Virus record (IMG/VR): IMGVR_UViG_3300041809_003422
Location: 1 to 54,061 of that record
Length of the DNA: 54,061 nucleotides
Strand: one strand, 5' to 3'
DNA from: a virus
Lineage: Duplodnaviria; Caudoviricetes
Shown: piece after piece, positions 1,943-47,074 of the stretch
How the letters are laid out: each line of letters begins with the position of its first letter
Position numbering within the stretch: position 1 is the first letter of the stretch
The notes under the pieces: model-generated
Databases searched by the model: none
Told to the model about the DNA's origin: nothing
What the model saw: the letters and a program-made list of their open reading frames with translations, nothing else
Program-made: the position numbers and the translations under genes

Positions 1943-2094
1943 AGAATCACTCACGCGAACAACGCGAGAAACTGTCGAGCTGGCCCGTGAAAACGTCAAT
2001 CGACTATGCCGGGAAACGACGACCTGGCAGGGCGCGATGGACGCGCAGGCGCAGGCTGGATAATGTTGCGGAATCGTAGACGCAGGAGCGTCTC

Positions 2095-2469
2095 ATGACA
2101 GAGACAAAGCCCAAGCTTTCGGACACCTCGATGGACGACGTTTGGCATGCGCTATATTTCATTGCGTTTGCGTCCGTAGTTTTGGGCACCATCGGGTTCG
2201 TCAATTGGAGCCCCGACGAGCAGCAGAAGGCTGAATTCGCAAACACAAATCTGCTTTGCAAAATGGGGAAGGTCTGCTCAAGCTATCCGGACGTAAGGGA
2301 CATGTGCGCGACCGCCGGCAGCTTCGATAAGTGCATGGAGGTCAAGTACGGCAGCCGAGAAAAATACGACGCGACGAAGCTGGCCTGCACAAACGACGGC
2401 AAAATCCAGATTGACGAGTCCAAGATTCCCGGAACGGTTTCGTGCTGGGTCGCATGGATTAAGGGGTAG
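2095..2469 (+). CDS. Moron: single-TM protein with Cys-rich extracytoplasmic domain
   Basis: Opposite strand to neighbours, GGAG RBS, one TM, 6 Cys; possible TGGACG-17-TAATGT promoter at 2038-2066; paralog at 53716. Confidence 0.8.
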   Translation: MTETKPKLSDTSMDDVWHALYFIAFASVVLGTIGFVNWSPDEQQKAEFANTNLLCKMGKVCSSYPDVRDMCATAGSFDKCMEVKYGSREKYDATKLACTNDGKIQIDESKIPGTVSCWVAWIKG

Positions 2470-2472
2470 GCG

Positions 2473-2643
2473 ATGACTGAAGACGAGAAGCCGCCGGTCG
2501 ACATACCGCCTGAATCGGACGGGAAGCCACCTAAGGTCGCGAAACCAAATCCGAGTACTAGAGGCGAAGGAGATCGCAACAAACGCGTGGGGCGGAAGCC
2601 GCCACGGCCAACGCGCAAACCCAGACGCGAGGGGCGGAAGTGA
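2473..2643 (+). CDS. Small Pro/Lys/Arg-rich hypothetical protein (56 aa)
   Basis: ATG 3 nt after previous stop, fills the gap. Confidence 0.35.
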   Translation: MTEDEKPPVDIPPESDGKPPKVAKPNPSTRGEGDRNKRVGRKPPRPTRKPRREGRK

Positions 2644-2658
2644 GCCGCCAAGGTGAGT

Positions 2659-3375: not shown

Positions 3376-3593
3376 GGCTCAACCGTCCTGCCGAATTCCC
3401 TCATCTTGGCGGCCAGTTCGTAGGTGCTGAGAACGACCCTAGAGCGGCCATCCTGATCGATCGTCACGACTTGCGCGAACCGCCGCCGATCCAGGCGATC
3501 CCAGTAGGCGCCTTCGACAGCGGCCTCCAGCGTGTCGAACTCGCGCTCCTCGATGCCGGAAGGGCCAAAGCCCTCGACGAAGAACTTGGCCAT
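3372..3593 (-). CDS. Hypothetical protein
   Basis: GGAGG RBS, operon packing. Confidence 0.7.
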   Translation of the reverse strand: MAKFFVEGFGPSGIEEREFDTLEAAVEGAYWDRLDRRRFAQVVTIDQDGRSRVVLSTYELAAKMREFGRTVEP

Positions 3594-3597
3594 GGCG

Positions 3598-3846: not shown

Positions 3847-3850
3847 GGCG

Positions 3851-5933: not shown

Positions 5934-6167
5934 CTACTTGAGGTCCACAAACCCGACAGGGCGCCGCTCGGGCGTCCGGAAAATCTTAACGCCGTTTGCG
6001 TCGACCAGGCCGGTGTCGACGTTGCCCGCGGCCTCATCGATGGCGACGATCGTCGCGTGGCGGCTGGACGGCTGACCGCTCGTCCACGACCAGCCAAAGG
6101 CGCAATCGTCTGCGATGTAGGCCTTCGGCTGGCGGGTGACGTAGCGGTCAGTCATGCGACGAATCAC
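5934..6167 (-). CDS. Hypothetical protein (start may be ATG at 6155)
   Basis: DTGLVDANGVKIFR..PVGF phage-like motif; packing. Confidence 0.7.
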   Translation of the reverse strand: MIRRMTDRYVTRQPKAYIADDCAFGWSWTSGQPSSRHATIVAIDEAAGNVDTGLVDANGVKIFRTPERRPVGFVDLK

Positions 6168-6677
6168 TCACTTCTTGGCGGCGGCAGCGGCAACCTGGGC
6201 GGCGGCGAGCGCGCCGGCGGAACCCGGCTTCGGCGTCGGCTGGGTCGGCGTGGCTGCGGGCGCCGGCTTGGCGGCAGGGACGGTCTTGGCTGCCGCGATC
6301 TGCGCAGCGGTGGCCGCGATGACTTCCTTGGCGACGATCACGGCCTCCTGCGTCGCGTCGAGATTCGGAACGGCTAGCAAAGCAGCCGCAACGGCGTCGA
6401 CCGACAGCAGATCGCCTTCGGCGTCGGCGACCTTGACGCCGACTGTGGCGAAATAGGACGCCGGATGCGTGACGTCGACGGTCAACCCCAACCGCGCGTT
6501 GAAGACGTAGTTTTTCTTGTCGACGGCGGCGCGCATCAGCGCCTTGAATTTCTGCGCCGGCGTCAAGGCGATCGCCGGGTGCGGCGGCTGCGCCGACGGC
6601 GTCATGTGCGGGTTCGGCATCCCTGCCGGGTGAGCCGGCGTCTGCGACGGGGTAGATTTGACTGCTGTGGTGGCCAT
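6168..6677 (-). CDS. Ala/Pro-rich hypothetical protein
   Basis: GGAGAG RBS. Confidence 0.75.
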   Translation of the reverse strand: MATTAVKSTPSQTPAHPAGMPNPHMTPSAQPPHPAIALTPAQKFKALMRAAVDKKNYVFNARLGLTVDVTHPASYFATVGVKVADAEGDLLSVDAVAAALLAVPNLDATQEAVIVAKEVIAATAAQIAAAKTVPAAKPAPAATPTQPTPKPGSAGALAAAQVAAAAAKK

Positions 6678-6740
6678 CTGGTCTCTCCTAGACGGGTCGT
6701 GAATGCGTCCAAATCGGACTGAGTCGTTAGTGATTCGTCG

Positions 6741-6983
6741 TCAAGCGGCGATTGGCATCCGCTTGCGAAAAACGCCGTACGTGTTCCCCGGTTCGTAGCC
6801 GTAGATCGCGGCGATGGCGGCGAAGGTCGCGTCGTAGCCCTCGCGCAGCGTCAGCGCCCGCGTCACGTTCGTATTGCTGACGCCGATCAGCAGGGCGATC
6901 TTGGTCCGATCGCCAAGCTCAAGGCCGTTGGACAGCTTTGACGCCAGCCGGGCGCGCGTGATGATTTTGTCGTCGAGTCTCAT
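6741..6983 (-). CDS. Small putative HTH protein
   Basis: RTKIALLIGVSNTNVTRAL HTH-like; ATGA-coupled to gcrA-like gene. Confidence 0.65.
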   Translation of the reverse strand: MRLDDKIITRARLASKLSNGLELGDRTKIALLIGVSNTNVTRALTLREGYDATFAAIAAIYGYEPGNTYGVFRKRMPIAA

Positions 6984-7546
6984 GCCGCCCTCCGGACGTA
7001 GACGACGCCGTGGTGATATTGGCAGTAGCTGGAGCGGCCCATCGTCGGCGCGCCGCAGCACGATCCGCCGTCGTCGATCCAGCGGCACTCGGCCGTCCGC
7101 GTCGCCAGGAATTCCACCCGCTTACTAGGCGGCTCGCCGGTGTGGTCGACGACCGGCGTCGGGAACCAATCGAATAGCGGCAGTCCGGTAGCGCGCACCG
7201 GAAGCGTGAAGGACCGCCCGAAGGTTCGCCGGCCGCCGACGGCAGCCCTGCCGACCGGCTTGAACGGCGTCGTCTTGGAAGAGCCCGCCAGCGAGATCGT
7301 CTCCACATGGGCGACCTTCTGTCGACCAGGGCGACGACCGTGGCCGGCGCCGAAGCGTTCGTCGCGAATGCGGCAGGCCTCGATGACCTCGGCGTTCAAA
7401 CGGCGACGCTGGCGGAGGATCACAGACAGGACGGCCGAGCGGCTGACGCCGAGCGGAGCGGCGATTTGCGAGGCGCTGGCGCCCGTCTTGAGAGCGGCGA
7501 CGACGGCGTCGACACGACCGCCAACGAGCCATTTCATCCGCATCAC
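6980..7546 (-). CDS. gcrA: GcrA-family cell-cycle regulator homolog
   Basis: N-terminal GASASQIAAPLGVSRSAV HTH and C-terminal CRW...CG...SYCQYH...Y pattern typical of GcrA. Confidence 0.88.
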   Translation of the reverse strand: MMRMKWLVGGRVDAVVAALKTGASASQIAAPLGVSRSAVLSVILRQRRRLNAEVIEACRIRDERFGAGHGRRPGRQKVAHVETISLAGSSKTTPFKPVGRAAVGGRRTFGRSFTLPVRATGLPLFDWFPTPVVDHTGEPPSKRVEFLATRTAECRWIDDGGSCCGAPTMGRSSYCQYHHGVVYVRRAA

Positions 7547-17028: not shown

Positions 17029-19186
17029 CCTTGCGGCCGTCCGGGAGATTACCGGGCCGGGGATCGAATCACTCTTTGGCGCGATCAAGCGCGCGGCCAA
17101 GACGTCGCTGATCTCGGCGCCGCCGGAGCCGATCGTCGACTGGATGGAGAGTCACGTCTATTTGCCGCCGGAAATGACCGACCGGCCTGGCAAGTTGCGG
17201 CTCAACAAGCTGCAAAAAGGCGTGTTCGCCGCGCTCCAGGAGCCGGGCGCGCGCTGGGTGTCGTTCCAGAAGCCGCCGCGATTCGGCGCCACGCTGGGGA
17301 CGGCGGCTGCGCTGCTCTATTTCGCGGCGCATGAGGGGCAGGACGTCTTCTATTCGGAGCGGTCCGAGGACTACGCCCAGGTCTTCTACAAGAAATACGT
17401 CTACCCAATGGTGACCGAGTCGAAGGACCTGGCGCCTTTGAAGCGTCCGGACACCCGCAGCGGCCGCCAGGACACCTGGCAGAACACGATCTTGACGACC
17501 GGCGCCGCGATCCAGCTTCGGTCGGCGGCGACCGACGGCGCCTTTCGACAGATCAAGGCCTATTTTTTGGTCATGGACGAATGCTCGGCCGCTGCCTACC
17601 AGGCCGGCAAGGCCGACAGCGAGGGCGACAAGACGAGCCTGGCGTGGAAGCGGGCGCAGCAGTTCAGAAATCCAGTCATGTTCCTTCCGTCGACGCCGAC
17701 CGAGGACGGCGTCTGCATCGTCTCGCGCGAGTACCGGCGCTCCGATCAGCGCGTGTTTGAGGTGCCGTGTCCGCATTGCGGCGTCATCCAGCCGCTGCAA
17801 CCCAACGTCGGACCCGACAAGGCGGGGCCAGGTCTCAAATACCGCGTCGATCCGGTCAGCGGAGAGATCGAGACTCGCAAGGACGAGCGCGGTGATGTGG
17901 TTCCGGATATCTGGTACCAGTGCCTGGATTGTGACAAGCCGATCCGTGAAGAATCCAAGGACTGGATGATTGAGCACGGCGACTGGCGCGCCACGGCGAC
18001 GCCGGCGGAGCCTGGCCTGATCGGATTTTACTGCTGGGGTATCTACTCAACCGATCCGCAGTCGACGTGGGTCGACATTGCCCGCCAGCATCGAGCGTCG
18101 CTCGCCGACCCGGCGATGCGCCAGCCGTTCAAAAATCTGGTGCTCGCGTTGCCGTGGGAGCGCCAGGAGCGGCGCGTCGTCCCGATCAACGAGTTGCAAG
18201 CTCGGGCCAAGCCGTGGCCGACGACCTGTCCGGAGTGGGTGCAATTCATCACCGCCGGCGTCGATAACCAGCAGGGCCGCGACGACGGCTCTCAGGTCGC
18301 ACGATCTGAGATAACTGTCGTCGGCTGGGGATTTGGCGAGGAATGCGCCGTCCTGGCTCACTATGTCGTCGAGGCGCGCCCGTTTACCGATCGATCAGCG
18401 CAGTTGGTCTATGAGGCGCTTGATCGTGTCTATTACACGCCCTCCGGACGCGCGCTCAAGGTCTACGCTACCGGCGTCGATATCGGCTACGATTTCGATC
18501 ATGGACTCGAATTTTGCTACAAACAGGCGAGCCGACAGCGCCGCATAATGGCGGTCCGTGGTCAGCCGACGATTGAGAACAAGCCGGCGTTCGCCTCGAC
18601 GCTGGGTCACTCGAAGAAAGACCCGAAACTGAAATTCCTGCGCATCTGGAAGCAGCAGCCAACCGGTCTGCTGATGGAGCGCTTGCAGCAGACGGTCGCC
18701 GGGCCGGGCGCGATCCATTTCCCGTCGTCGCTGTCGGTCGAGTATTACGAATCACTCGTCGCGGTGCATCGCGTCAACGACAAGGCCAAGAATCGCTCCT
18801 ACTGGGTCGACGATCCAGACAATGAGGCGATGGACTGCTGGGTCTACGCCTATGCCCGCATGCGGCACCTGATCGCCCTGCGGCCCGACATGCGCAAGCT
18901 GCTGATGGACCGTGGCATGTCCGGTCGGGATGAGGCTGCTAGCGAGTATGAAGGGCCGGACCGCTCAGCGCAGTCCGACCTCGCCAAGTCTGAGGCGCCG
19001 CCGAGCGAGTCTGTGGCTCCAAGCGCGGTGCCGACGAGGGCCGCGCAGGTCGCCGAGCCGGACTTTCCGCGCGTGTCGCAGCCGGCGTGGCGTCGAGAGG
19101 GTGTCAATGGCAACGGCCAAGCGCCTCGCGTTCCGTCGCCGCACCGGCGGTTTGGGTCGAACCAGGCGGGGCGCTCGCCCCTTTGA
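17009..19186 (+). CDS. Terminase large subunit, gpA family
   Basis: KPPRFGAT, LVMDE, STPT, SDQR..EVPCPHCG, ITAGVDNQ, NEAMDCWVYA. Confidence 0.96.
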   Translation: MQITRTDLAAVREITGPGIESLFGAIKRAAKTSLISAPPEPIVDWMESHVYLPPEMTDRPGKLRLNKLQKGVFAALQEPGARWVSFQKPPRFGATLGTAAALLYFAAHEGQDVFYSERSEDYAQVFYKKYVYPMVTESKDLAPLKRPDTRSGRQDTWQNTILTTGAAIQLRSAATDGAFRQIKAYFLVMDECSAAAYQAGKADSEGDKTSLAWKRAQQFRNPVMFLPSTPTEDGVCIVSREYRRSDQRVFEVPCPHCGVIQPLQPNVGPDKAGPGLKYRVDPVSGEIETRKDERGDVVPDIWYQCLDCDKPIREESKDWMIEHGDWRATATPAEPGLIGFYCWGIYSTDPQSTWVDIARQHRASLADPAMRQPFKNLVLALPWERQERRVVPINELQARAKPWPTTCPEWVQFITAGVDNQQGRDDGSQVARSEITVVGWGFGEECAVLAHYVVEARPFTDRSAQLVYEALDRVYYTPSGRALKVYATGVDIGYDFDHGLEFCYKQASRQRRIMAVRGQPTIENKPAFASTLGHSKKDPKLKFLRIWKQQPTGLLMERLQQTVAGPGAIHFPSSLSVEYYESLVAVHRVNDKAKNRSYWVDDPDNEAMDCWVYAYARMRHLIALRPDMRKLLMDRGMSGRDEAASEYEGPDRSAQSDLAKSEAPPSESVAPSAVPTRAAQVAEPDFPRVSQPAWRREGVNGNGQAPRVPSPHRRFGSNQAGRSPL

Positions 19187-24030: not shown

Positions 24031-24074
24031 GCCGGGGGCGCGGGGCTTTGGCCTCCTGCCTCCGGCTTTTCTTT
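24031..24074 (+). terminator. Terminator after major capsid gene
   Basis: GCCGGGGGC...GCCTCCGGC stem plus TTTTCTTT. Confidence 0.7.
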
Positions 24075-24085
24075 GAGGGACGGTC

Positions 24086-25932: not shown

Positions 25933-25944
25933 TGGAGTGATTCG

Positions 25945-29932: not shown

Positions 29933-32900
29933 ATGGCGAATCGGCGCGAGGTCAGCGAGCAGCGCACGATCTGGACCGCCGAGGGCGTCGACACTGTCGT
30001 TGCCGGGGCCCAGCGAATCTCTGCGGCCTCAGCGGTGGCGTTCCAAAAGACGACCGAGGCGGCCGGCAAACAATCGGCGCTTCTCGCGGCGTCTCTAGCG
30101 AAATCCAACAAAGCAGCGTTCGAAGCGGCGTCCTCAGCGTCCAAGGCCGCCGTGTCGGGCAGCGGCGACCGTCTGTCTGCGGTGGCGGCTCAACGCCGCG
30201 CCGCGGCCATGGCGGTCGCCGCGCGCGCCGCATCCAAGGCTGTCGCCGATGCCGCCAATCGCACGATCGAGGCCTCGACCTCGGCGTCCCTGGCGCGCCA
30301 GAAGGTCAAGATCGAGGCCTTTAAGGCTTCCCTACGCAAGGAACTCGCTGACAAGACGACGACTCCCGAGGGCGCCGCACAGCGGCTGCGCTATGGCATC
30401 ATTCAAGCGCGCGCCGAGGCCGCGGCCGAGATCGAGGCGGCGAAGAAAACTGTCGCTGGAAAGCTCGCCGCCGGCGCGCAGCATGACGCCTCGACGGTCG
30501 CCGCCGTCCGCAACGCCGCGGCGCAGAACGCCGCCGCCAAGGCCGCCGAAGCGGCGGCGAAGCGCCAGGCAGAGGTCCACAAGCAGGTCGCGCAATCCGC
30601 CGCCGCGATGTGGCAGGCGATGGAGAAATTTGAGCAGATCGCGGTCAAGGCCTTCAAGGCCGCTTATCGCGCGACGCGCACCTTCATTCGCGCCTTGTCG
30701 AGCATCGCGCGCGCCATCATTTCGCTGATCAAGCACCTCGACCGCATGGCGAAGGCGGCGCTGCACGCCGGCGAGAAGATGGCGTCAGCGATGCTTGGGC
30801 CGCCGTTGCACGCCGTGCATGCGCTCGATCACGCCCTTCTCGGAGTGATTCGTCGTCTGTCGCGTCTGGCGACGCATGAGGCGTGGCGCATCGCAAAATA
30901 CGGCGTCGGCGCTTACGTCGCCGGCAGCAGCGCGCTGGCCTATGCGGCCAAGGACGCCGTGACGACGACGCAGCAGCGGGCGATCGACGTGCGCGATCAG
31001 GCATGGGACGCCCGTATGTCGCCGCAGGAATTGCAGGCGATCACCGGCGCCGCCAAGGCGTATGGCGCGCCGGTCGACGAGATTCTCAAGGCCTATAACG
31101 CCTTCCGCCAGTCCGTCTTCACGGCGCAGAGCGATCCGGAATCGCCTCAGGCGCAGATGCTGGCCCAGCTTGGGATCCAGACGACCTATAACGCCGGCAT
31201 GTACAAGGTCGCCCGCAATCCGAGCGATCTGTTTACTCAGTTCGCCGGCCGCGAAAACAGCATGGGCTACTACGCCGCCATGCAGGCGAGCAACACGTTG
31301 CTTGGCGGCCCGGACGCCATGAAGAACCAGGGGTTCTTTGACTGGGTCGGCCAGCGCGGCCCGCTCGCCTATCGCGAGGGGTTGCAGCGCGAGCAGATGA
31401 TGGGGACCTATCTGTCGCCGGCCGATATTGCGCGCGCGCGTGAGTGGCGGGCGACGATCGTCGACGTCAAGGATGCCTTCCTCGGCGTCAAAGAGGCGAT
31501 TTCCAAGCAGGTCTACCCCACTTTCAAAGCGCTCGCCGACGTCGCCGTGTCGTTCCTGACGACCTATCGGACGCAGATCGCCGATTTTGTCGGCAACCGC
31601 GTCAAGGCTTTGGCCTACAATATCGCCCAGCTCGTCTGGATAATCCACAAGGAAGCTGAAGCCTATTCGAAGGTGACGGACAAGGTCGCCTCGAAGATGG
31701 GCGTCAACCTGCGGCCTGGCGCCGGCGGGACCGACGACACCGGCGCGCCACTGTCTGGCGACCAGTCGATTGAGACGTCGCAGCCGGTCATCTTGCGCGC
31801 CTACAATTGGTTCAACGCCAACATCCGCGGCAAGATGATGGCGACGCTGCATTCGATCGCGGCGGCGGCCAAGACGGCCTACGCGGCCGCCGCGCGCTTC
31901 CTGGCGGCGTTCGGCATCAATTCTCTCCAGACGGCGGTCGACAAGCTGGTCGCCGCCGGCCACGCGATGCATGTTTTCGGTCATGAGGCGATGCTGGCGC
32001 TAAAGGGCGACTACATGACGCTCGCCGCTGAGAACGCGCCGGTGTTCCAGCGCCTGGCGTCCTGGCGCAACGCGACGGTCGCCTATGTCAAACAGGCGAT
32101 TATCGACGTCCGCAAGGTGCTGTCAGGCGACGCTCTGACCGACGACTCGACCTTCGTCGGCCGCATGGCGCAGCGCATCAAGGATTTCGTCCAGGCGCTG
32201 CCTGGCTGGATCGAGAAGATTAAAGCGACGCTCAAGGGCGCATGGGATTACGTCTCGAACCTTTGGCACAATTTCGAGGACGTGCTGCACGGCAAGAAAT
32301 CGACAGACTTTCCTTGGATGAACAAGATCAAGGACTGGTTCGACCTGATCGCGAAGCGCGTCGAAACGGCCATGGGTTGGTTCGAGAAGCTGTTCGGCGC
32401 GATGGAGAAGCTGACGCAGTTCCTCGGCTTCGATCTTGGCAGCGCGCTGATGTTCATCGGCCTCTTGAATCTGACGAAGGTGTTGCAAGGCGTCGCATTG
32501 GTCGCCGGAACGGTGAAGACCACTTTGCAGGGCATTGCTGCGCTTGGCGGCGTCGGCGCGGTGTCAGGTGCTGCCGGCGCTGGTGCGGAGGCTGGGGCAG
32601 CGGGGATTGGGGCTGCTGGCGCCGCAGCCGGAGGAGCCGCCTTGTTGGGCCTCGGTGTGGCTGCGGCCGTTGGGGGAACGGCTGCCTATGTCGTCCATGC
32701 GGCTAAGCAAGACTATCAGGGTCGTGTCGACGCAGAGACCGAACGTGAGCAAGCAGCGGCCGGGAGGTCGCGTGCGTCGCAGACAGGATGGTTCGTCCAC
32801 GATGTCATGGAAGCCGTCCAGCAAGCCAAGGCGGTCGCCAACGCATCGGGCGCGCGCACCCACGACGAGTATCTGCAAAACGTCGTTTCAGCGTTCTCTC

Positions 32901-33043
32901 AAACCAAAGGCGGTCAAGAGGCGATGAAGCTCCACATCTTCCTCAACGGCTATCAGATCGAGCAACTGACGGCCGGGCAGGCCAAGGATTTGTATCTGAA
33001 TCCTGGCGGCCGGATCGTCCAGGACACCGGTTTCAGCTTCTGA
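29933..33043 (+). CDS. Tape measure protein
   Basis: 1036 aa, Ala-rich helical, periodic W/F. Confidence 0.9.
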   Translation: MANRREVSEQRTIWTAEGVDTVVAGAQRISAASAVAFQKTTEAAGKQSALLAASLAKSNKAAFEAASSASKAAVSGSGDRLSAVAAQRRAAAMAVAARAASKAVADAANRTIEASTSASLARQKVKIEAFKASLRKELADKTTTPEGAAQRLRYGIIQARAEAAAEIEAAKKTVAGKLAAGAQHDASTVAAVRNAAAQNAAAKAAEAAAKRQAEVHKQVAQSAAAMWQAMEKFEQIAVKAFKAAYRATRTFIRALSSIARAIISLIKHLDRMAKAALHAGEKMASAMLGPPLHAVHALDHALLGVIRRLSRLATHEAWRIAKYGVGAYVAGSSALAYAAKDAVTTTQQRAIDVRDQAWDARMSPQELQAITGAAKAYGAPVDEILKAYNAFRQSVFTAQSDPESPQAQMLAQLGIQTTYNAGMYKVARNPSDLFTQFAGRENSMGYYAAMQASNTLLGGPDAMKNQGFFDWVGQRGPLAYREGLQREQMMGTYLSPADIARAREWRATIVDVKDAFLGVKEAISKQVYPTFKALADVAVSFLTTYRTQIADFVGNRVKALAYNIAQLVWIIHKEAEAYSKVTDKVASKMGVNLRPGAGGTDDTGAPLSGDQSIETSQPVILRAYNWFNANIRGKMMATLHSIAAAAKTAYAAAARFLAAFGINSLQTAVDKLVAAGHAMHVFGHEAMLALKGDYMTLAAENAPVFQRLASWRNATVAYVKQAIIDVRKVLSGDALTDDSTFVGRMAQRIKDFVQALPGWIEKIKATLKGAWDYVSNLWHNFEDVLHGKKSTDFPWMNKIKDWFDLIAKRVETAMGWFEKLFGAMEKLTQFLGFDLGSALMFIGLLNLTKVLQGVALVAGTVKTTLQGIAALGGVGAVSGAAGAGAEAGAAGIGAAGAAAGGAALLGLGVAAAVGGTAAYVVHAAKQDYQGRVDAETEREQAAAGRSRASQTGWFVHDVMEAVQQAKAVANASGARTHDEYLQNVVSAFSQTKGGQEAMKLHIFLNGYQIEQLTAGQAKDLYLNPGGRIVQDTGFSF

Positions 33044-33053
33044 GTGATTCGTA

Positions 33054-33599
33054 ATGGCGAACCCCAACGACACCGGACTTGCTATGCTGACGATCCCCCT
33101 GGCGATGGGCGCTAGGCTTGGGATTCGTGAGTCGCGTTCGAACGTCAACGAGTGCGAGATTCTTCGCGATTGGAACGGCGGCCCGTTGGTCGTCGCCTCG
33201 CCATTTCCCAAGAAGGCGAAGATCAGCTTGGCGGCGTCCGGCCACGGCGTGCGGATCGAGCCGGCGTTCGATGGCGTCCAGATCGGCGACACGGTGACGC
33301 TCTACAGCCGCAAGACGAGCGTTGCCTTCATTGGCTCCGGTGGGAACACGGCAGTCTTGCACTGGCCGGTCGTACCAGGATCAAAGGTGGTGGCTACGAC
33401 CGTCGCAGGCAACAAGCCGGTGTCGATCAACGTATTTGTCTCAAACGGCCAGACCATCGCGTATCTGAATCCCAATGCGACAGAGGACGTAGTCGTCTCC
33501 TACTTCCCGGTGATCGATTGCATCATCAAGTCATGGGGCGGCTCCGCCGCGACGTCAGACGGAAATGAAGACTGGTCAGCCGAGCTTGAGGAGGTCTGA
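33054..33599 (+). CDS. Distal tail protein-like
   Basis: Follows tape measure; C-terminal DWSAELEEV. Confidence 0.7.
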   Translation: MANPNDTGLAMLTIPLAMGARLGIRESRSNVNECEILRDWNGGPLVVASPFPKKAKISLAASGHGVRIEPAFDGVQIGDTVTLYSRKTSVAFIGSGGNTAVLHWPVVPGSKVVATTVAGNKPVSINVFVSNGQTIAYLNPNATEDVVVSYFPVIDCIIKSWGGSAATSDGNEDWSAELEEV

Positions 33600-33601: not shown

Positions 33602-35839
33602 GTGACGACTCATGTCTATGGGATAGGAGGGGGCCGAACGTTCACGCGTATTGACGTGTGGACGCACTATTTCTCCTACCTGGAGACACTCGACGAGGTC
33701 TTGACCGACGCCCACCTTCGCAACGACGAGCAGGTCGTGTCCTGCACGATGCGCGCCGAGCGCGGCGGCGTGTGGACGGCGTCGCTGCGGATCAAGAATC
33801 CCGGACTGACGCTGTTCGCGCCTGGTCGGCAGATTTATTGCGCCATCATCGAGTCGCCCGATGGCACGATCGCCAACAGCCGAATTCTTGGCAAAGGACG
33901 AATCACTCCCGCCGTCAACGACATGACGGGGATGACGATCGATATCGAGGTCGTCTTCGCGCCGGCGAATCTGCGCGATCTGATCTGGCAGTTCTTGCTG
34001 TCGAGCAATCTGACGACCCTTCCGTGGTTCAATCCGGCCTACGACGATATCAGCTTCGACAAGCCCGAAGACGTCCTCAAGGCCTCTGGTCTGCTGCTGC
34101 ACGTCGACCCGGTGACGCACGTCATCTCGACCACCGATTCCCTGATCGGAGACGAGACCAACCTCGACAACAAATACGATTGGAAGAGCCTCAAGATCGA
34201 GACGAGCGGCGTCCCGCCAGTCCACCGTGTCAAGCTGCGTCTGGCGGTCGAGTGGACGCAGCACGCCCAGGGCGCGATCAACATCGCCCAGGCGCTGACC
34301 GATCCGACGACTGGCTGCATGGTGACGACGCTGTCGGGCGCCGTGTCGGATTTCATGCCGAATTCTATGCCGGGTCAGTATGTGACCTTCGCAAACGGCA
34401 CCGGGTGGACGCCAGACTATTCGCAGATCAGCGTTGATTACACTAAGTTTGGACCTTTCTATACGGGGAGAACTCGCCTCGTTCAGCAAACCCATTTCTA
34501 CTGGGCTTCCGACGCCAGCCATCAGGTCGTCGGCGGCGTCGACATGCCGGTGCCCGGTTATAAATCCGAACTGGTCGAGCAAGAGATCGACGAGTGCTGC
34601 TCGCTTTGGGGCTACAGCTACAAGTGCACGTTCGCCTGGTTCCGCTACGAATACACGCAGCAGCGTCGCGAGTTCGTGACGATCCTTTACGAATATCCTC
34701 TTCAGCCGGTCATCGGCACGCTCACTGAGCTTGATCTCGGCACGGTCAGTGTCACCGATCTGCTGACCAACTACCAGCCTAACCCTGCGCCTCCGCCGGC
34801 GTCGGACGCCTTCGGGAATTACGTCGCGCCGTGGGATCCCTTCATCGCGGTCCAGCCGTTCGACCCGTCGGCGATCTACATGACGGGCAATTTGGTGACG
34901 TTCGGCGACAACCTCTACCGCTGCACCGCCGACAACGTGCAGGGCAACTTCTATCAGCCGATCGGCGAGGGTCTGGCGGCCTACACCGGCCATCCGAATT
35001 GGATTCTGGTCGACCGGATTTCCGCGCTGTCGTCGCCGATCGCGCCGGCGTTTGTCGGCTCGTCTGCCGGCGGCATGTGCATAGAGCACGGCATCCTGCG
35101 GTGCCGCAACGCCGCGCGCGCCCGCTCGGAATATTTCACCGTCGCATTCGAGACGGATTGGGATCACGGCGTCCCTATCACTCTGCTCAATTCGGTGCGC
35201 ATCACGGCGCTGATCCGCACGACGGGCGTTGTCCAGCCGCTGCTCGGCAAGGTGCGCAAGATCGAGCGCGTGATCGATCCGATCAAGGGCAAACGCGTCA
35301 AGATCGAGATCGGCGTCTGTGTCGGCACCGGCTTCATGGGCTATCCGACGCCGGCGTTGATGGGCGATGCGTCGCCTGATTTTGCTGCATGGTTCAACGG
35401 CCAGACGACCGAGCTTTACGGAACCTTCAACTACTTCAACGGAGGTTGGCAGGGCTTGTTCCCAGGCCTGGCGGGCTTCACCGGCTACTATCCAGACTCG
35501 TCGATTCTTGGGTCGTTCGCGAACAATGACTACCTATGGACGGCCGCCAGCGACCCGGTGATCATTCCGGTTGACGCCTCTCAGCTTTCGAATCCAGGCT
35601 ACGCAGTGTGGAAGGTCGACCGCTACGGCACGGCGGCCGAGCAGTGCGCCGCGGCCACGTCTTACGCCATGTCCGGCATCGATCCGCGCGACGCGATCCG
35701 AGATAACCCGACGCATCTGGAGGTTTACATGCGCCCGCTGGTGAGCGAGGGCGTCATCCAGCGCAACGTCGACGTCGCCGCCGCCGCGACGGCGTCGGTG
35801 CGCGGCATTGATCTCTCGACGCCCGGAGGCGAGCCATGA
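33602..35839 (+). CDS. Tail tip/hub protein
   Basis: 745 aa, position after distal tail gene. Confidence 0.75.
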   Translation: MTTHVYGIGGGRTFTRIDVWTHYFSYLETLDEVLTDAHLRNDEQVVSCTMRAERGGVWTASLRIKNPGLTLFAPGRQIYCAIIESPDGTIANSRILGKGRITPAVNDMTGMTIDIEVVFAPANLRDLIWQFLLSSNLTTLPWFNPAYDDISFDKPEDVLKASGLLLHVDPVTHVISTTDSLIGDETNLDNKYDWKSLKIETSGVPPVHRVKLRLAVEWTQHAQGAINIAQALTDPTTGCMVTTLSGAVSDFMPNSMPGQYVTFANGTGWTPDYSQISVDYTKFGPFYTGRTRLVQQTHFYWASDASHQVVGGVDMPVPGYKSELVEQEIDECCSLWGYSYKCTFAWFRYEYTQQRREFVTILYEYPLQPVIGTLTELDLGTVSVTDLLTNYQPNPAPPPASDAFGNYVAPWDPFIAVQPFDPSAIYMTGNLVTFGDNLYRCTADNVQGNFYQPIGEGLAAYTGHPNWILVDRISALSSPIAPAFVGSSAGGMCIEHGILRCRNAARARSEYFTVAFETDWDHGVPITLLNSVRITALIRTTGVVQPLLGKVRKIERVIDPIKGKRVKIEIGVCVGTGFMGYPTPALMGDASPDFAAWFNGQTTELYGTFNYFNGGWQGLFPGLAGFTGYYPDSSILGSFANNDYLWTAASDPVIIPVDASQLSNPGYAVWKVDRYGTAAEQCAAATSYAMSGIDPRDAIRDNPTHLEVYMRPLVSEGVIQRNVDVAAAATASVRGIDLSTPGGEP

Positions 35840-36998: not shown

Positions 36999-37325
36999 AT
37001 GACGTCGAAGGGGACCAACACACACAACTATTTCCAGCCTCGCTCGCTGGCCGGCGCCAGGCCGGAGTTGGTGCGTCTGATCCTCAAGGCGATCGGCGAC
37101 CTGCCCGCATGGCAGATCGAGAAGCGCATGCGCGTGCGCTTTACGCGGCGTGACCTTTACGAACTGCGCGAAGGCGCCGAAGACGGCCGATTCTCTTTTT
37201 CCAGGCTGGTCGTCATGGCGGAGAAGCTTGGCGTCAAGATCGATATCACCGCTTCTTTAGGACCCACGCCGGTCGAGAATCGTCCGCACGTCGACCGGCA
37301 CGAACTCGGTCGCAAGGTCGCCTGA
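36999..37325 (+). CDS. XRE-like HTH protein
   Basis: DLYELREG...RFSFSRLVVMAEKLGVKIDI. Confidence 0.65.
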   Translation: MTSKGTNTHNYFQPRSLAGARPELVRLILKAIGDLPAWQIEKRMRVRFTRRDLYELREGAEDGRFSFSRLVVMAEKLGVKIDITASLGPTPVENRPHVDRHELGRKVA

Positions 37326-40300
37326 CGACGCCGCCTGGATGAGCCGCGACCCCTTCTTGATCTCGCCGCGCGCCACTGCGCCGACCATCGTCGTCTCGCG
37401 GGCCGCGCATTCGCGGCTGCGGCGCTGCTCCAGCGTGCCGACGACCGCCTCGAATTTCACGTCTTGCGGGAACGGCTTCGCGGCTGTTCTGGAGCCGCAG
37501 ACCTCGATAACCTTGACGCCGGCGTCTAGGTCGACGCGGCGCTTGTAGCCGTGATTGGCGTTGATGATCCATGCCGCCGGGTCGTCGACGAAGGCTGGCA
37601 CATACGATTCTTTGTGGACCGTGACGCCGAGTGATTCGTCGATCAATTCGTAGACGTATTTGGCGAATCCCTTGCCGACGCGCGACTTGAGGCCGTCCTT
37701 GGTCATCGGTGTCAGCACCCGGTCGACGATTTCGAGCGAGCCAGCGCCGAGGTCTGGCGCGACGGCGGCGGTGGTGCGCGGGTCGGCGATGCGGGCTCTC
37801 CGGATCGCTTCGAAGGCCTCGGAATCCTTGGCGATATCGTCAATGTGGACGAGGTCGTCGACGATGCAATCCTCGGGGATCGAGGTGCCGAGCATGACAG
37901 CCAGCGGCGCTTCGCCTTCGCGGAAGACGGTGCGTAGGCGGCCGAAGAACTGGTCGATCTCTTCTTCGCGGTATTGCCGCTGGACAATGCTCGCCCAATG
38001 CCCCTGGTGTTTGGGGACAAGAATCACCTCGTCGACGCCGTCGCGCTTCTTGACGACGAGCGGCGCCATCAGCGGCCGAAGTTCCTTGCCGTCGTCGTCG
38101 AGCCCGTTGCCGTTGCGATCAATAGGTTCTTCGGGCTCCAGGTCGTCGTAAGTCAGCGCGCCGACGATGCCGTCGATAAACTGGATCGGCATGTCCATGC
38201 GGCCGACGCAGAGCGCGTAGGAGTGCAGCTTGGCGTCGTCGCGGCCGCGCAGGTCGCCGAAATGCATGTCGTCGACGTTATCAGTGTGGGCGTAGATCGA
38301 GTTCATTTCCGCCCGGATCGGCTTGGCGAACGCCTCGATGCCGCGACCGAAACCGAACATCAGACCCATCTTCGACCGCACCTGATTGACCTTGTTTTGC
38401 CGTATCGCGGCATAGAGGCCGCCGCGCGAGCCTCCTTTGTGCGCCGCCGGCGACAGCGACTGATTCGAGTAGGTGGAATCGATGACGGCAATCGTCCGCT
38501 GGTGCATCGCGCCTTTGACGCGGACGGTCTCGACCTTGCGGCCTTCCCACAGCTTGGCGATGATTTCTTCATGTCCGGAGGCGTCGAGCATCAGCGTCGG
38601 CAGCTTGCCGAAATTGTTCTCTTGGCGCCACGACAGACGCAGCGACGGATCGCCGCCGGGCCCGTTGACCCATTGTAGCCGCTTGTCGCTTTTGCCCCTG
38701 GCGCGTGGCGTGTAGCTGCCAAGAAGACCGGTTTCCTCGGCCAGGCGCAGGTGCGGCCGGTCGAACTCGACGGCCAGCATGCGCTCTTGCAGGATTTTCC
38801 ATGCCCGCCACTCTGCGGCGATCTTTGATCCCTGCGGCTGTTCGACGAGCTTTTTCGCGCCCATCAGCGTCATCCCAGGCGTCACCTTGCGATGGGCGTC
38901 CATGGCGTTCGAGCAGACCTGGATCGCGTCGGCGACAAGTTGCTTGCCGGTGATCGTCTCCTTGCCGCTGCCGAGAACGGTGTCGAGCAGCGCGACGGCG
39001 GGGTCGCCTTTGACGGCGGCGGCGCGCAGGACGACTTTGCATGCGTCGTCGTGGCCTCGCAGGATGTGCTCAGGCTGGATGCCGACCGCCTTCTGATGCT
39101 TCAAAGTGCGCGGTAGCGGGCGTGGAAGCTTGAATGTGTCGATCGGAATCGTCGTCGAGGCGACGAGTCCGGTCCATGCGCGCTCGTCGATCACGACGGC
39201 CGCGACCTCTTTAAGCTGCGCCGGGATTTTGGTGTCGAGGAACGCCGTCGGGCACAGCACCAGGTCGACATGTTCGATCTGCCGCTTCTGCATCTGATAG
39301 GGGCAGGTCTCATAGTGCGAGCAGTAGGTCGTCTCGCCGTCCTGGCCCTCGGATTCGCAGAGAGTCGACGTGCTGTAGCCGGCGCCTTGGAGGGTCGTGA
39401 TGATCTCCTGGCCGAGGGCGCATTTCCGCGCCTTGCCTTCCATGGTCATCACCCGCAGACCGGCTTGGCGAATTTGAACCGCCTCGCCCTCAAGGTCGTC
39501 GTCGCCGACGCCGGCGTAGCCCTTGACGGTGGTGATGTTCTTATAGGACGGCATCATCATCAGGATTGGCTTGCCGAGCCGGCCCTTTTCGGCGATCTGG
39601 TCGCGCAGCATCCTGACGAAAGCCGAGGTCTTTCCGGCGCCGGCCGGCGCGATCATCAGGCGCACCGTGTCTAGCGCCGCCTTGGCTTCGTCGTCCTCGT
39701 CGCGCACCGCCTTCCAGAGAAGATCGAGCCACGTCTGAATGCCGTCGACGACCTCGTCGCGAACGCGCGACGTCTCCGGGGCGCGGTCCTTCAATAGGGC
39801 GCGCTCGGCGCGCTTCTGCTCCGCCCCCTCAGTGATTCGTTCGACGACTTTGATCGGCGTCCGCTGGGCGACCGGGACCAGCAGCGCGGCGATATCCTCG
39901 TCGTCCGACGCCGTCGACACGGCGCTGACCGGCGTCGAGATCGTGCCGTCGTCGCCGCGATAGACGATGCGGGTCTTGAACTCGCCGCTGGCGACGCGGG
40001 CCATGGTGCGGCGCAGCTTCTCGGCGATCTGTCCGCGCAGCCGGTTATCCCAGCCGTCGAGCGATAGGTGCTCGATCGCCTCGGCCTCAATGGCTGCGGC
40101 GAGTGATTCGTATGACGCGTTCGGGTTGAACGCCGCCCAGTCTCCTACGCGGCGATTGATCCAGCCCTCACGGCCGTCGACCACCTTGCCTCCGACGATG
40201 CGGACGCCGCTGACAGCGTTGACGCCGGCCGGCTTGATCAGGTCGCCGACGACAATTGCGCGGTCGAGCGGCTGACCGGGTCCCGACGATGCCCGTGGCG

Positions 40301-44231: not shown

Positions 44232-44617
44232 CGGACCAAGAGACGCCGCGCAAACACGCCGACGACGGCCGCGACTTCGTGCAGATCATCGCTCAACTGG
44301 TGCTGGCGCTCGACGACCTCCGCAAGACTGGCGTCGTCAAGGACTTCGGCGTCCGACGGCTGATCCACGACAACAAAGACTGGGCGACGGCGTTCATGGG
44401 CGTCGACCTCGACAAGATGGCGTTCGAGCGCGGGAACCCGCCGCAGTTTGGCGTCCCGTTCAAGCACGAAACGCTTGGCATGATGGCGATTGTCCGGTCG
44501 GGCCCGGAGCAGATGGACGCCTACCGCATCTGCCGCGCCGCGTGGCGCTTCAACGACCAGATGCCCGAGCACCTTCGCCAGTCGGCCGAGCCGCCGAAGC
44601 GGAAGAAAGCAGCGTGA
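44228..44617 (+). CDS. Hypothetical protein
   Basis: ATGA overlap. Confidence 0.7.
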   Translation: MTDQETPRKHADDGRDFVQIIAQLVLALDDLRKTGVVKDFGVRRLIHDNKDWATAFMGVDLDKMAFERGNPPQFGVPFKHETLGMMAIVRSGPEQMDAYRICRAAWRFNDQMPEHLRQSAEPPKRKKAA

Positions 44618-44644
44618 AAATCTCCGTCACCTAGCGAGGACAGC

Positions 44645-45055
44645 ATGCGCAAGGCCTCTATCTGTGTCCTGATTCTGATCGCCGCGCTGCTGGCCGTCCT
44701 CATCGCCGGCGCAGCCATGGCCGCCGATCAGCCGCCGGCTCCGGTCGCGACGCCGGCATGCACGGCGCTTAAGCAATTCCGCTCTGAGGCGGCCATCGTG
44801 GGCACCAAGACGATGGTCCTCGGCGGCGACCAGTCAAACCTCGCCGCCGTCATCACCGACACGCTGAGCAACGTCGGCGCGCCGGCCGTGATGATCGCGA
44901 AGGACTACCTGATCGTCGCGCATGGCGACGGGCTATTGATCTATCCGATCATCGCCGGAGCGATCTGCTCACGCCCACACGCCGAACTCGACTCGGTGGC
45001 GGCGCACGCTCTGATGGATAAGCTTCTCGCCGCCCTCCTGAGATCGCAGGCGTGA
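44645..45055 (+). CDS. Exported protein with signal peptide
   Basis: MRKAS...AAMA signal, two Cys in mature part, GAGGA RBS. Confidence 0.75.
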   Translation: MRKASICVLILIAALLAVLIAGAAMAADQPPAPVATPACTALKQFRSEAAIVGTKTMVLGGDQSNLAAVITDTLSNVGAPAVMIAKDYLIVAHGDGLLIYPIIAGAICSRPHAELDSVAAHALMDKLLAALLRSQA

Positions 45056-47040
45056 AGGCGGCGATCGACTACCGAGACCCGGCGGCCATCGTCAGGGCAT
45101 ATCGAGAGCACGGTCGATCCATTAGCGCAGTCTGCAAGGCGCTCGGCCTCAGCTATCCCTATTTCGGCGAGCGGCTGCGCTGGGCTCGCTGCCGGCTCGG
45201 CTTGTCGATCGCCGATATCAAAGGCGACACGCCGCTGCCGGCGCCAAAGGTTGTGATTGAGGAATCTTCGATCCGCGAGGCGTCTCCGCCGCGGGCCGCC
45301 GGCGCGCCCAAGGCGGCCAGCGACGACGCCAAGACGACGCCGAAGCAGCATGCCTGCAAGCGTGCTGATTGGCTGCAAGAGTCGCTCTACGCGATGATCA
45401 CCCGCTCGCGCTGGCCGGTGATCAACCCCGAATGCGTCGTCATCGAGAGCCGCGTCACCGAGAAATACAACAAGCGGACGGAAACCTACGAAGAACACGA
45501 ACTCGCCCTGCGCACCTACGTCTCCGACGACATGCGCGCCGCGCCGATCCTCGACTGCAAGGGGCGGCGGTTCTTCTTCGGGCGGGCGCAGAACCAAACG
45601 CCAGTCGACCAAGGCCTGTGGACGAACCTCTTGGCCTACGCCGAATGGATGGGCGCCGACGTCGTGATCGGCCCCGACACCTATGAGACGGCCTGGTGGC
45701 ACGAAGCCAACGAGTTTTCGCGCCGCTACGCGCCGGAGGTCGAGGACTATCTGTGCTTCGGCCGGCTGGAGATCGGCGACGACTTCATTTTCCTGGGCGA
45801 CATGAACGTCATGACGACGGCCGCCCGCCCGGTGACCGATCTGACGGCGCAATCCAAGGGCAAGTGGTGCGTCGTCCCGCACTCGAAGATGCAGCTTGAA
45901 TCGGTGCCTTCGCTCGACCCCGACAAGCCGGCGCGCCAGATCATGACGACGGGCAGTGTCACGACGCCAAAGGTCATCCCGCGCAAGGCGGGCGTGAAGA
46001 GCATCTTCGACCACATCATGGGCTTCCTGGTGGTCGAAATCGACGACGAAGGCGTCGTTCACTGCCGCCAGGTCAACGCCGAGGACGACGGCTCGTTCTT
46101 CGACCTCGACCACCGGGTCGAGAACGGCGTCGTCACCACCACCAGCGACAGCGTGCGCGGAATCGTCTTCGGCGACGTCCACCGCGCCAAGCTCGACCGG
46201 TCGAACGAAGAGGACGTCATCGCGTCGTTCGGATTCGACCCCAAGAGCAACATGTGGGGCGACGAATCACTCGTCACGCACCTGCACCCCAAGGACGTCT
46301 ATTTCCACGACCTGCACGACGCCGGTCCCGACAATCACCACAACTGGGATGATATCGGCATGGCCGTCGAGCTGGCGGCGCGCCGGATGCACACGGTAGA
46401 GGACGAGATACGCGCCGACGGCGAGTTCCTGCGGACGTTCCGCGAGTTCCACCCCGAGCCGGCGATCAAGGTCGTCGAGTCGAACCACGACATAATGTTG
46501 GACAGGTGGATCAAGGAGGCCCGGTACCGCGACGGCTTCAATGTGCTGTTCGGCCTGCACCTGGAGAAAGCGCAGTTGACCTGGCGGACACAGGTCGCCA
46601 AGGCGCTCGACGCCCGCGAGACGCCGCCCAAGTTCTCGCTGCTCGAATACGCGATCCGCGAATTCCAGCCCGATCTTGCCGACATCGAGTGGCTCTACGA
46701 CGGCGACTCGCATGTCGTCCTGGACGTCGAACTCGGCCACCACGGCTTCCGCGGCGCAAACGGCGCCCGATCGTCGACCGTCGGCTATTCACGCATGGGT
46801 CGCAAGATCATGACCGGAGACCCGCATTCGCCGGCGATTCTCGGGGGCACCTATCGCGTCGGCTGTATGGGCCGCAAGCACGGCTACAATAAGGGCCCGT
46901 CCGGATGGTCGGTAACCCACGGCATCCTCTACGAAAACGGCAAGCGGGCGCTGGTGACGATCCAGCACGGCCGCTATTGCCTGAAAGGCTACGGCCGACC
47001 GATCTACGGCGTCGGCGAACGGCTCAAGGAAGCCGCTTGA
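45052..47040 (+). CDS. HTH plus metallophosphoesterase protein, T5 A1-like
   Basis: AQNQTPV, GDVH, HDLHD, SNHD, HHGFRGANGARS, HSPAI, YNKGPSGW. Confidence 0.8.
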   Translation: MKAAIDYRDPAAIVRAYREHGRSISAVCKALGLSYPYFGERLRWARCRLGLSIADIKGDTPLPAPKVVIEESSIREASPPRAAGAPKAASDDAKTTPKQHACKRADWLQESLYAMITRSRWPVINPECVVIESRVTEKYNKRTETYEEHELALRTYVSDDMRAAPILDCKGRRFFFGRAQNQTPVDQGLWTNLLAYAEWMGADVVIGPDTYETAWWHEANEFSRRYAPEVEDYLCFGRLEIGDDFIFLGDMNVMTTAARPVTDLTAQSKGKWCVVPHSKMQLESVPSLDPDKPARQIMTTGSVTTPKVIPRKAGVKSIFDHIMGFLVVEIDDEGVVHCRQVNAEDDGSFFDLDHRVENGVVTTTSDSVRGIVFGDVHRAKLDRSNEEDVIASFGFDPKSNMWGDESLVTHLHPKDVYFHDLHDAGPDNHHNWDDIGMAVELAARRMHTVEDEIRADGEFLRTFREFHPEPAIKVVESNHDIMLDRWIKEARYRDGFNVLFGLHLEKAQLTWRTQVAKALDARETPPKFSLLEYAIREFQPDLADIEWLYDGDSHVVLDVELGHHGFRGANGARSSTVGYSRMGRKIMTGDPHSPAILGGTYRVGCMGRKHGYNKGPSGWSVTHGILYENGKRALVTIQHGRYCLKGYGRPIYGVGERLKEAA

Positions 47041-47074
47041 CAAGAATCACTGATTTGATTCAGCGCTCGATTCG
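47037..47074 (+). promoter_or_regulatory. Putative promoter TTGACA with three GANTC sites
   Basis: TTGACAAGAATCACTGATTTGATTCAGCGCTCGATTCG-ATG. Confidence 0.6.

Follow-up and report, generated by a model that had tools for sequence, protein, structure and literature searches.

An 11-bp GANTC-containing word dispersed through a prophage genome that encodes a divergent GcrA-family protein

The virus record IMGVR_UViG_3300041809_003422, which was analysed over its entire 54,061 bp (hereafter the window), is a provirus fragment (CheckV estimate, 68%) that carries 15 copies of a short asymmetric word with the conserved unit gAGTGATTCGt. The copies are scattered over both strands, are selected at the DNA level and are private to this phage, and the natural inference from these sequence properties is that the word is a protein-binding site. 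Its centre, TGATTCG, is the optimal heptamer of the regulator GcrA and holds one GANTC, the site methylated by CcrM, and the same genome encodes a divergent GcrA-family protein. A GcrA-type domain is strongly favoured as the putative reader of the word, because the exact heptamer (P ~0.001) and a rare gcrA-like gene occur in one genome in which two copies of the word are also promoter-like.

Results

A first-pass annotation of the window had reported 11 exact copies of the 10-mer GAGTGATTCG, and each of them was recovered at the same position and on the same strand. Its rough estimate that far fewer than one copy should occur by chance was also borne out, since 100 dinucleotide-preserving shuffles gave an expectation of 0.27 copies and a maximum of 2, and none of the 100 reached 11. 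Of the four near copies that it added, those at 1943 (minus strand, GAGTGATTCT), 6728 (plus strand, TAGTGATTCG) and 39830 (plus strand, CAGTGATTCG) differ from the 10-mer by a single base, whereas the one at 47043-47052 on the minus strand differs at both ends and keeps the core AGTGATTC. An additional one-mismatch match at 38458 on the plus strand (GACTGATTCG), absent from the earlier list, has a broken core and is probably a chance match. The conserved unit gAGTGATTCGt was derived from sub-word counts: the core AGTGATTC is present in 15 copies (1.28 expected), AGTGATTCG in 13 (0.56 expected) and the 11-mer GAGTGATTCGT in nine (0.04 expected). Conservation beyond the 11 positions was looked for in the flanks of the 15 copies and none was found. 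The copies are located as follows.

1943..1952, minus strand: variant GAGTGATTCT, abutting the ATG of a xis-like helix-turn-helix (HTH) gene
6160..6169, minus strand: exact copy at the junction of the open reading frames (ORFs) 6168-6677(-) and 5934-6167(-), with an ATG 4 nt further on
6728..6737, plus strand: variant TAGTGATTCG in the 63-nt gap 6678-6740, read on the minus strand as GCCGCTTGAC-GAC-GAATCACT
17065..17074, minus strand: exact copy in codons 19-22 of the large terminase (I-E-S-L), antisense
18748..18757, minus strand: exact copy at amino acids 580-583 of the large terminase (Y-E-S-L), antisense, E581 and L583 being invariant in relatives
24555..24564, plus strand: exact copy in the tail-fibre-like gene 24073-25932, sense (G-S-D-S)
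25935..25944, plus strand: exact copy between genes 24073-25932 and 25945-27387, ending at the ATG, with GGAG at Shine-Dalgarno distance
30843..30852, plus strand: exact copy in the 1036-aa gene 29933-33043, sense (G-V-I-R); the position of this gene suggests a tape measure
33042..33051, plus strand: exact copy that shares bases with the stop codon of 29933-33043 and precedes the ATG of 33054-33599 by 2 nt
33899..33908, minus strand: exact copy in gene 33602-35839, antisense (R-I-T)
37629..37638, plus strand: exact copy in the prim-pol gene 37257-41030(-), antisense (D-E-S-L)
39830..39839, plus strand: variant CAGTGATTCG in the prim-pol gene, antisense (R-I-T)
40101..40110, plus strand: exact copy in the prim-pol gene, antisense (Y-E-S-L)
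46263..46272, minus strand: exact copy in gene 45052-47040 (PHROG 1745), antisense (D-E-S-L)
47043..47052, minus strand: core-only copy cAGTGATTCt in the 145-nt gap 47041-47185, read on the plus strand as GCCGCTTGAC-AA-GAATCACT

Two copies thus lie in promoter-like gaps, four at start codons and nine within genes, and for five of the 15 a gene boundary is no more than 25 nt away, where 1.39 such copies would be expected (P = 0.01). They are unclustered, with spacings of 271 to 10,337 nt over 45 kb, and two regions are free of copies (6.7-17.1 kb and past 47.1 kb). Relative to local transcription, six copies are sense and nine antisense, and there is no strand polarity along the map.

The distribution of the in-gene copies was informative about the level at which the word is maintained. 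Five of the nine copies fall in ESL, two in RIT and one each in SDS and GVIR, which makes four coding contexts, and the ESL copies are spelled GAA-TCA-CTC, with rare codons, in a genome with ~80% GC at third codon positions. The terminase residues beneath two of the copies (L22, E581 and L583) are invariant among relatives. Taken together, the use of both strands, the four coding contexts, the rare-codon spelling and the invariant terminase residues show that the word is selected at the DNA level; it looks as if it had been written into pre-existing peptides through codon choice. In a codon-preserving shuffle, which had been proposed as a check by the first-pass annotation, the 10-mer averaged 2.4 copies and never exceeded 4 over 300 synonymous-codon shuffles, compared with 11 in the window, and the copies that persist in the shuffles are mostly those at gene junctions and in intergenic DNA, which synonymous shuffling scarcely alters. 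When all words with at least six copies were scanned against 100 codon shuffles, the word and its sub-words came first at k = 9, 10 and 11 (z = 15-27), and the next unrelated words reached z ~7-8. The word is the sole strong word outlier under codon-preserving shuffles. In the contigs from the wetland runs no variants were seen at the word copies, and the RNA contigs gave no transcript starts.

Four copies, all of them sense, stand at ribosome-binding positions, as the first pass had recognised. At 1944, 6161, 25936 and 33043 the distance from the end of the word to an ATG is 0, 4, 0 and 2 nt, and a GAG or GGAG comes to lie 7-11 nt upstream of the ATG, at the Shine-Dalgarno position. These copies would be accounted for by a signal that acts on RNA, such as an extended ribosome-binding or translational-operator sequence. 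Such a signal cannot explain the antisense and in-gene copies, because nine of the 15 copies are antisense and two of the sense copies lie deep in genes with no start codon after them, and we regard it as very improbable. Other kinds of repeat were set aside on similar grounds of placement: a peptide repeat is ruled out by the presence of the word on both strands and in four coding contexts, the remnant of a miniature inverted-repeat transposable element (MITE) or another mobile element by the unconserved flanks, and integrase arm sites or cos-binding sites by the lack of clustering. The iterons of a replication origin are direct repeats packed closely into a few hundred bases, an arrangement with which the spacings given above disagree.

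Outside the window the word is scarce. In 83 loci of distant relatives, AGTGATTCG was found zero times or once per locus, and zero times in 80 of the 83. The 10-mer has 0, 2 and 2 copies in the three genomes of 3-6 Mb that hold the nearest prophages, and at most nine in any of 401 genomes of the order (3-9 Mb), at least one copy being present in 302 of them; by rough arithmetic, the genomes of the order are ~400-fold sparser in the word than the phage. Among 201 genomes of the class, the 11-mer was present at most twice in any genome and was missing from 172. These counts show that the word is private to the phage. The genomes counted are members of the order or the class, the true host of the phage is not among them, and wetland metagenome runs are the sole sequencing runs with phage sequence, which gives some room to a host-wide word shared by the prophage, in the manner of Chi, of uptake sequences or of FtsK-orienting polar sequences (KOPS). 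Equal density in the host chromosome, which the first-pass annotation had named as an argument against its proposal, was not observed in the host-type genomes sampled. Since these genomes hold the word so sparsely, and since the word is also without strand polarity along the map, a host-wide word is the least probable of the explanations that we considered.

The centre of the word agrees with a known site. Haakonsen et al. reported TGATTCG as the MEME consensus of the sites bound by Caulobacter GcrA, with YGAKTCK as a broader form (PMC4647560). In the crystal structure of Wu et al., the DNA-binding domain of GcrA contacts all seven bases; R33 and R42 form hydrogen bonds with the two guanines, and the methyl groups are received by pockets made of I37/N34/R33 and of G38/N34 (PMC5887438). 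The fit to a GcrA-type site that had been proposed for TGATTCG was confirmed, since the word reads GAG-TGATTCG-T and contains the exact top consensus with one CcrM-type GANTC. All 15 copies fit YGAKTCK, 13 of them with TGATTCG and two with TGATTCT. For a random 11-mer of the same composition, the chance of containing TGATTCG is P = 0.0011 and that of containing any YGAKTCK is P = 0.010. Over the window as a whole GANTC is mildly depleted (229 observed, 312 expected), with one site per 236 nt.

The gene that the first pass had called gcrA and its neighbour are arranged as follows.

6980..7537 (stop included), minus strand: divergent GcrA-family gene; ORF 6983-7537, 185 aa from an MKW start
6741..6983, minus strand: small XRE-like HTH gene (P0065, 80 aa), whose ATG overlaps the stop codon of the gcrA-like gene (ATGA)

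Membership of the first gene product in the GcrA family was supported by Pfam PF07750, with 27.9 bits for a 188-aa form and 28.3 bits for the 185-aa form (cut-off 26.9) over profile positions 7-148 of 155, and by hhalign against three host GcrAs (96.9%, E = 1.9e-10), in which residues 7-181 and both domains were aligned. The layout predicted from these alignments is an N-terminal three-helix DNA-binding domain followed by a C-terminal CCCH zinc-finger domain of the sigma-binding type. The phage protein was placed on the Caulobacter chains 7ye1_G and 5yiu_A by way of the three host GcrAs. It keeps R33 and R42 as well as all four zinc ligands, residues that do not vary among 11 aligned members of the family. 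Its ligands are C151, C161, C172 and H175 (C-X9-C-X10-C-X2-H), whereas those of Caulobacter are C118, C133, C143 and H146 (C-X14-C-X9-C-X2-H), the first loop being five residues shorter in the phage protein. Four of the six contact residues (R33, N34, I37, G38, H41 and R42) are changed in the phage protein, whereas all six are kept in the three host GcrAs and in the solved Caulobacter chain. Of the 11 aligned members, 10 have the glycine (G38) that makes up the floor of the second methyl pocket, and the phage protein alone has a serine there; N34S together with I37L forms a recurrent subtype among viral homologues. Because host-type GcrAs keep all contacts, the core of the word may suit the host GcrA no less well than it suits the protein of the phage.

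An AlphaFold model of the phage protein has three confident helices within residues 1-60 and is of low confidence, and unreliable, elsewhere. The N-terminal domain was superposed on 5yiu_A with a Z score of 6.0 and a root-mean-square deviation of 1.9 Å (45 of 49 residues). Generic HTH domains, however, score equally well or better, and the fold search does not tell GcrA apart from other HTH domains with three helices. Among 1.84 billion representatives, an exhaustive HMMER search gave just 69 matches at E <= 1e-3, and the nearest full-length relatives are ~29-36% identical; from this small number and low identity, the protein is an orphan branch of the family. Genes of this kind are rare in phages, as tblastn found matches to the phage protein in 4 and to a host GcrA in 5 of 50,697 cultured-phage records.

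The copies at 6728 and 47043, both antisense, share the arrangement GCCGCTTGAC-N2-3-GAATCACT. A -35-like CTTGAC is followed here by a spacer that contains the word just after it, and both copies face downstream genes, leftward from 6677 and rightward from ~47066. The gap 6678-6740 holds TGAGTCG and TGATTCG 11 nt apart (two GANTC in 63 nt), and the gap 47041-47185 holds four GANTC in 145 nt, compared with the overall density given above; most other gaps have none. Judged by this sequence context, sigma-70 promoters of the GcrA/CcrM type probably lie at 6.7 kb and at 47.0 kb. The 15-base composite GCTTGAC-N2-3-GAATCACT was matched 107 times in viral contigs, which by a rough estimate is about what chance would give, and the three to four copies of the word in each of five selected viral records are explicable by selection bias. 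In a separate observation, two related viral contigs, G408 (L275) and G409 (L229), have two copies of CTTGACAC-GAATCACTTG 489 nt apart and no GcrA-family gene. In the scan with the composite, this pair alone showed a repeated arrangement of a -35-like element with a GANTC word, the one seen in the window; two of the four word copies of such a contig, which is unrelated to the phage, are arranged in this way.

Dependence of prophage genes on GcrA has a precedent, as a 26-gene structural operon of a Brevundimonas prophage is GcrA-dependent (PMC7987155). The window has the same kinds of genes as this operon of Brevundimonas subvibrioides, namely a gpA-type terminase, a portal and a prohead protease. 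The operon differs in that it depends on the host GcrA; in that species an extended motif was not found, and a dispersed word was not reported (PMC7987155).

The XRE-like gene next to the gcrA-like gene ends 4 nt before the word copy at 6728..6737. Its product, P0065, has no Pfam family at E <= 1, and a search for longer relatives of P0065 gave none. Among full-length relatives, P0086 (302 aa; 52 bits on Pfam GcrA) is the closest to the GcrA-like protein, and its C-terminal extension matches HTH_3 below threshold at residues 239-282. The Smith-Waterman score of P0065 with residues 223-288 of P0086 is 66, whereas 2,000 shuffles gave 26.8 +/- 4.2 and never more than 54, and P0065 scored 21-41 with six relatives that have no extension. 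BLASTP found no alignment between P0065 and P0086, and the homology rests on the Smith-Waterman score with its shuffle control and on the sub-threshold HTH_3 match. If it is real, the pair formed by P0065 and the GcrA-like gene would correspond to a single fused GcrA-XRE protein in P0086, and such a split pair would agree with a reader that uses two modules on an asymmetric site of more than the 7 bp contacted by GcrA.

Discussion

Our results are compatible with a GcrA-family protein, of the phage or of the host, that binds the word and links phage transcription to GANTC methylation; we regard this as the leading explanation and as quite possible, though still tentative. The reader would be the divergent GcrA-like protein of the phage, perhaps with the XRE-like protein as a partner, or else the host GcrA. 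The core of the word would provide the optimal GcrA heptamer together with one GANTC for the host CcrM. The promoter copies would drive the leftward operon from 6677 and the rightward genes from ~47066, and the other 13 copies might act as extra docking sites, either in a stoperator-like block of read-through or by concentrating GcrA-loaded RNA polymerase on phage DNA. The host CcrM methylates GANTC only at a set point of the cell cycle. A more elaborate epigenetic, stoperator-like circuit can be drawn from this, in which the word would be a private 11-bp extended site with N6-methyladenine (m6A) in its GANTC, placed in promoters, at gene starts and, through codon choice, in coding sequence. 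A split GcrA (G38S)/XRE reader would sense the methylation state of this site, would tell unmethylated, hemimethylated and fully methylated phage DNA apart, and would tie genome-wide phage transcription, or its silencing in the lysogen, to the replication state of phage and cell. We consider this full circuit speculative and rather unlikely.

Several observations weigh against a GcrA-family reader. The heptamer TGATTCG is not itself enriched in the window (16 observed, 12.5 expected), 13 occurrences being inside the word and three outside. As GcrA contacts 7 bp, it does not by itself account for G1-A2-G3 and T11 of the word. The orientation of the word relative to transcription is mixed (6:9), 13 of the 15 copies are without a -35-like element, and no convincing -10 element was found even at the other two. 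Five viral records with the composite CTTGAC-N2-3-GAATCACT encode no GcrA-family protein. On the side of the protein, the Pfam cut-off was passed by a margin of just 1-1.4 bits, and a phmmer search of the PDB sequences with the phage protein gave no solved GcrA chain at E <= 10. The ungapped alignment shows the substitutions N34S, I37L, G38S, K39V and H41L, and because contact residues are among them, the specificity of the phage protein and its reading of methylation may differ from those of canonical GcrA. Finally, the co-occurrence of motif and gcrA, which the first pass had proposed to test in related prophages, was not found as a general rule: none of 17 other viral loci with GcrA-family genes (L280-L296; several are near-duplicates, so that they represent ~10 independent lineages) has an enriched TGATTCG-type word. 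These loci are strongly depleted in GANTC (5-34 observed against 43-122 expected; in L287, 5 against 93) and hold zero or one TGATTCG each.

Two cultured phages with GcrA-like matches are likewise without such a word, and in 50 high-GC control loci selected by terminase YGAKTCK was found at 0.39 of expectation. Carriage of gcrA is therefore not generally linked to a dedicated site, and this phage is an exception, as the other gcrA-encoding loci have purged GANTC and it carries a dedicated word. The depletion of GANTC may be a means of escaping methylation by the host CcrM, GcrA binding or restriction enzymes that cut GANTC. Phage-borne GcrA-family genes are also known from phiCbK-like and other alphaproteobacterial phages, and for the GcrA homologues of the phiCbK-like phages the action proposed in the sections available concerns host genes only (PMC3556154).

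The idea that private words are a general phenomenon was dropped, as most of the cases encountered are clustered iterons of the origin type or a CRISPR-like array. Six loci (L044, L053, L054, L056, L001 and L162) have 6-12 direct or inverted 9-mers within 100-300 nt and are iteron-like, and L070 has a CRISPR-like array of 17 repeats with a 61-nt period. Dispersed, strand-biased words were seen in L082 (the 19-nt TGACCTTGCACGGGCCACG, six copies), L093 (TGATGCGGT, nine copies, eight on one strand) and L136 (CTGGGCGGT, 7/7 on one strand). In L279, the first 50 kb of Caulobacter phage RW (MK929790.1), CCGCTGAGGT is present 34 times against 0.18 expected, within a longer repeated word.

The scattered arrangement of the copies invites comparison with another class of phage sites. 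Cluster A mycobacteriophages (L5, Bxb1, TipsytheTRex) carry 20-30 dispersed asymmetric 13-bp stoperators, few of which are in promoters (PMC6550527; PMC9283540) and most of which have one orientation relative to transcription (PMC6550527). The word might similarly be the operator set of another phage regulator, such as the XRE-like P0065 alone or an ORFan protein, which would bind the sites and thereby silence or punctuate transcription; the presence of TGATTCG would then be coincidental. It is a set of short, asymmetric, phage-private sites over the whole genome, of a size and number similar to those of Cluster A, with two copies promoter-like and 13 not. Moreover, five of the 15 copies are at gene boundaries, the XRE-like gene ends next to one of them, the other gcrA phages are without the word, and the ORFan early genes could hide a repressor. 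Against this, a coincidental TGATTCG has a chance of 0.0011 and would have to occur in the same phage as a rare GcrA-family gene, stoperators are mostly one-way whereas the word is split 6:9, and no CI-like repressor domain was detected in the family scans of the ORFs. The word also differs from the Cluster A sites in its 15 copies of 11 bp, in the unrelated family of its candidate reader, in a core that is a methylation site and in the phylum of the host. We therefore consider an operator set of this kind a serious candidate, but an unlikely one. The repressor that reads stoperators is a two-domain monomer (PMC9283540), and two DNA-binding modules may act there on one asymmetric site; by analogy, the candidate GcrA/XRE pair of the phage could be alike.

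The word could also serve a DNA transaction other than transcription, for instance as the recognition site of a phage enzyme for base modification, single-strand nicking or packaging. The right arm encodes a DUF1937 protein (PHROG 355), a P-loop kinase-like ORF and a DUF7448 protein, and copies on both strands and inside genes are needless for a purely transcriptional signal. The family scans, however, gave no methyltransferase, nickase or modification enzyme with a known long site, and an explanation of this type leaves the GcrA heptamer and the two promoter-like contexts unexplained. The known nicking or modification motifs of phages are strand-biased or shorter. Such a role appears improbable to us.

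Returning to a GcrA-family reader, the word resembles the GcrA/CcrM sites of Caulobacter in its exact TGATTCG with GANTC, in two copies located in promoter-like, GANTC-rich gaps and in the presence of a two-domain GcrA-family protein. It differs in that the unit is 11 bp and not 7, 13 of 15 copies are not promoter-like and nine are in genes, the heptamers outside the word are depleted in the window, and the pocket and contact residues of the phage protein are altered (N34S, I37L, G38S and H41L). Phages of other groups also have short repeated sites: the start-associated sequences of Cluster K are short conserved words directly before start codons, and the C1 operators of phage P1 are asymmetric and scattered. 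In the window, start association concerns four of the 15 copies and promoter association two, which sets the word apart from both. We place it with two known kinds of site, as a variant of GcrA/CcrM sites and of operator sets that are dispersed and phage-private, and see no new category in it.

Phage gcrA genes have been annotated since the phiCbK genomes of 2012, and the literature searched, as far as its available text goes, names no DNA target of their products on a phage genome (PMC3556154; PMC7987155). The prophage described here offers 15 copies of the word, two candidate promoters and a divergent candidate reader, and with them perhaps the first DNA targets of a phage GcrA that can be put to the test. 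If binding is true, the phage would have turned the m6A reader-writer system of alphaproteobacteria into a regulatory code of its own that spans the genome, and its protein would be a natural variant in specificity from which the reading of sequence and methylation by GcrA-type domains can be studied. That other gcrA phages purge GANTC is in addition a lead on the ways in which phages handle CcrM methylation by their hosts.

Gene map and prophage ends

The gene map was established from the ORF list with our own filter on GC at third codon positions, without a gene caller. Other landmarks of the record are listed below.

622..1722, minus strand: tyrosine integrase
ATG at 1944: xis-like HTH gene
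53428..53498, plus strand: borderline tRNA (Rfam, 29.2 bits), spanning the right phage-host junction

The leftward block consists of small genes, mostly ORFans. From 16.3 to 37 kb come the small and large terminase (lambda gpA type), followed by portal, protease, capsid and tail genes; the prim-pol gene 37257-41030(-) codes for 1257 aa, and a muramidase is also encoded. The right arm holds an AAA+/M41 protease and nucleotide-metabolism-like genes.

The nearest cellular prophages are in Methylobacterium and in a lichen Rhizobiales genome, with a terminase identity of 35-37%. A 111-kb contig carries this prophage together with host flanks. Megablast of 10 kb of the phage against cultured phages gave zero matches. 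Zero relatives were also obtained in single-terminase scans of genomes and viral contigs and in an alignment-based scan of metagenome contigs, and alignment-based terminase scans of genomes and viral contigs gave relatives at <=37% identity only. Closer terminase proteins exist (P0002-P0005, 44-54% identical), and the word counts in relatives cover the loci at <=37% terminase identity.

Six-frame scans of this record for the methyltransferase families PF01555 and PF02086 gave nothing at E <= 1, and no methyltransferase family was found among the ORF matches to Pfam, PHROGs and NCBIfam. This absence holds for the record and not for the entire phage, since the left end is missing and the fragment is incomplete. 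Indeed, the core at the tRNA junction has no second copy in the window, which indicates that the left prophage end is missing. On the right, contigs from other samples part from the record at 53451 and 53501, and the DNA past ~53501 is outside the element.

Gene 45052-47040 codes for a 662-aa protein that matches PHROG 1745 ('DNA transfer protein') with E = 3e-137 and has no Pfam or NCBIfam family. In the right arm, from 47186 to 52647, are found the DUF7448 gene, the DUF1937 gene (PHROG 355 is named nucleoside 2-deoxyribosyltransferase) and the P-loop kinase-like ORF, and the AAA+/peptidase M41 protein (FtsH-like, 658 aa) is encoded on the minus strand. The tail-fibre-like gene 24073-25932 contains alanine-rich tandem repeats with a 45-nt period at 24750-25810. 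Beyond the right junction, 53783-54061 repeats 2192-2469 at 88-93% identity and one contig skips 53502-53783, which suggests that this repeat is the remnant of a related neighbouring element.

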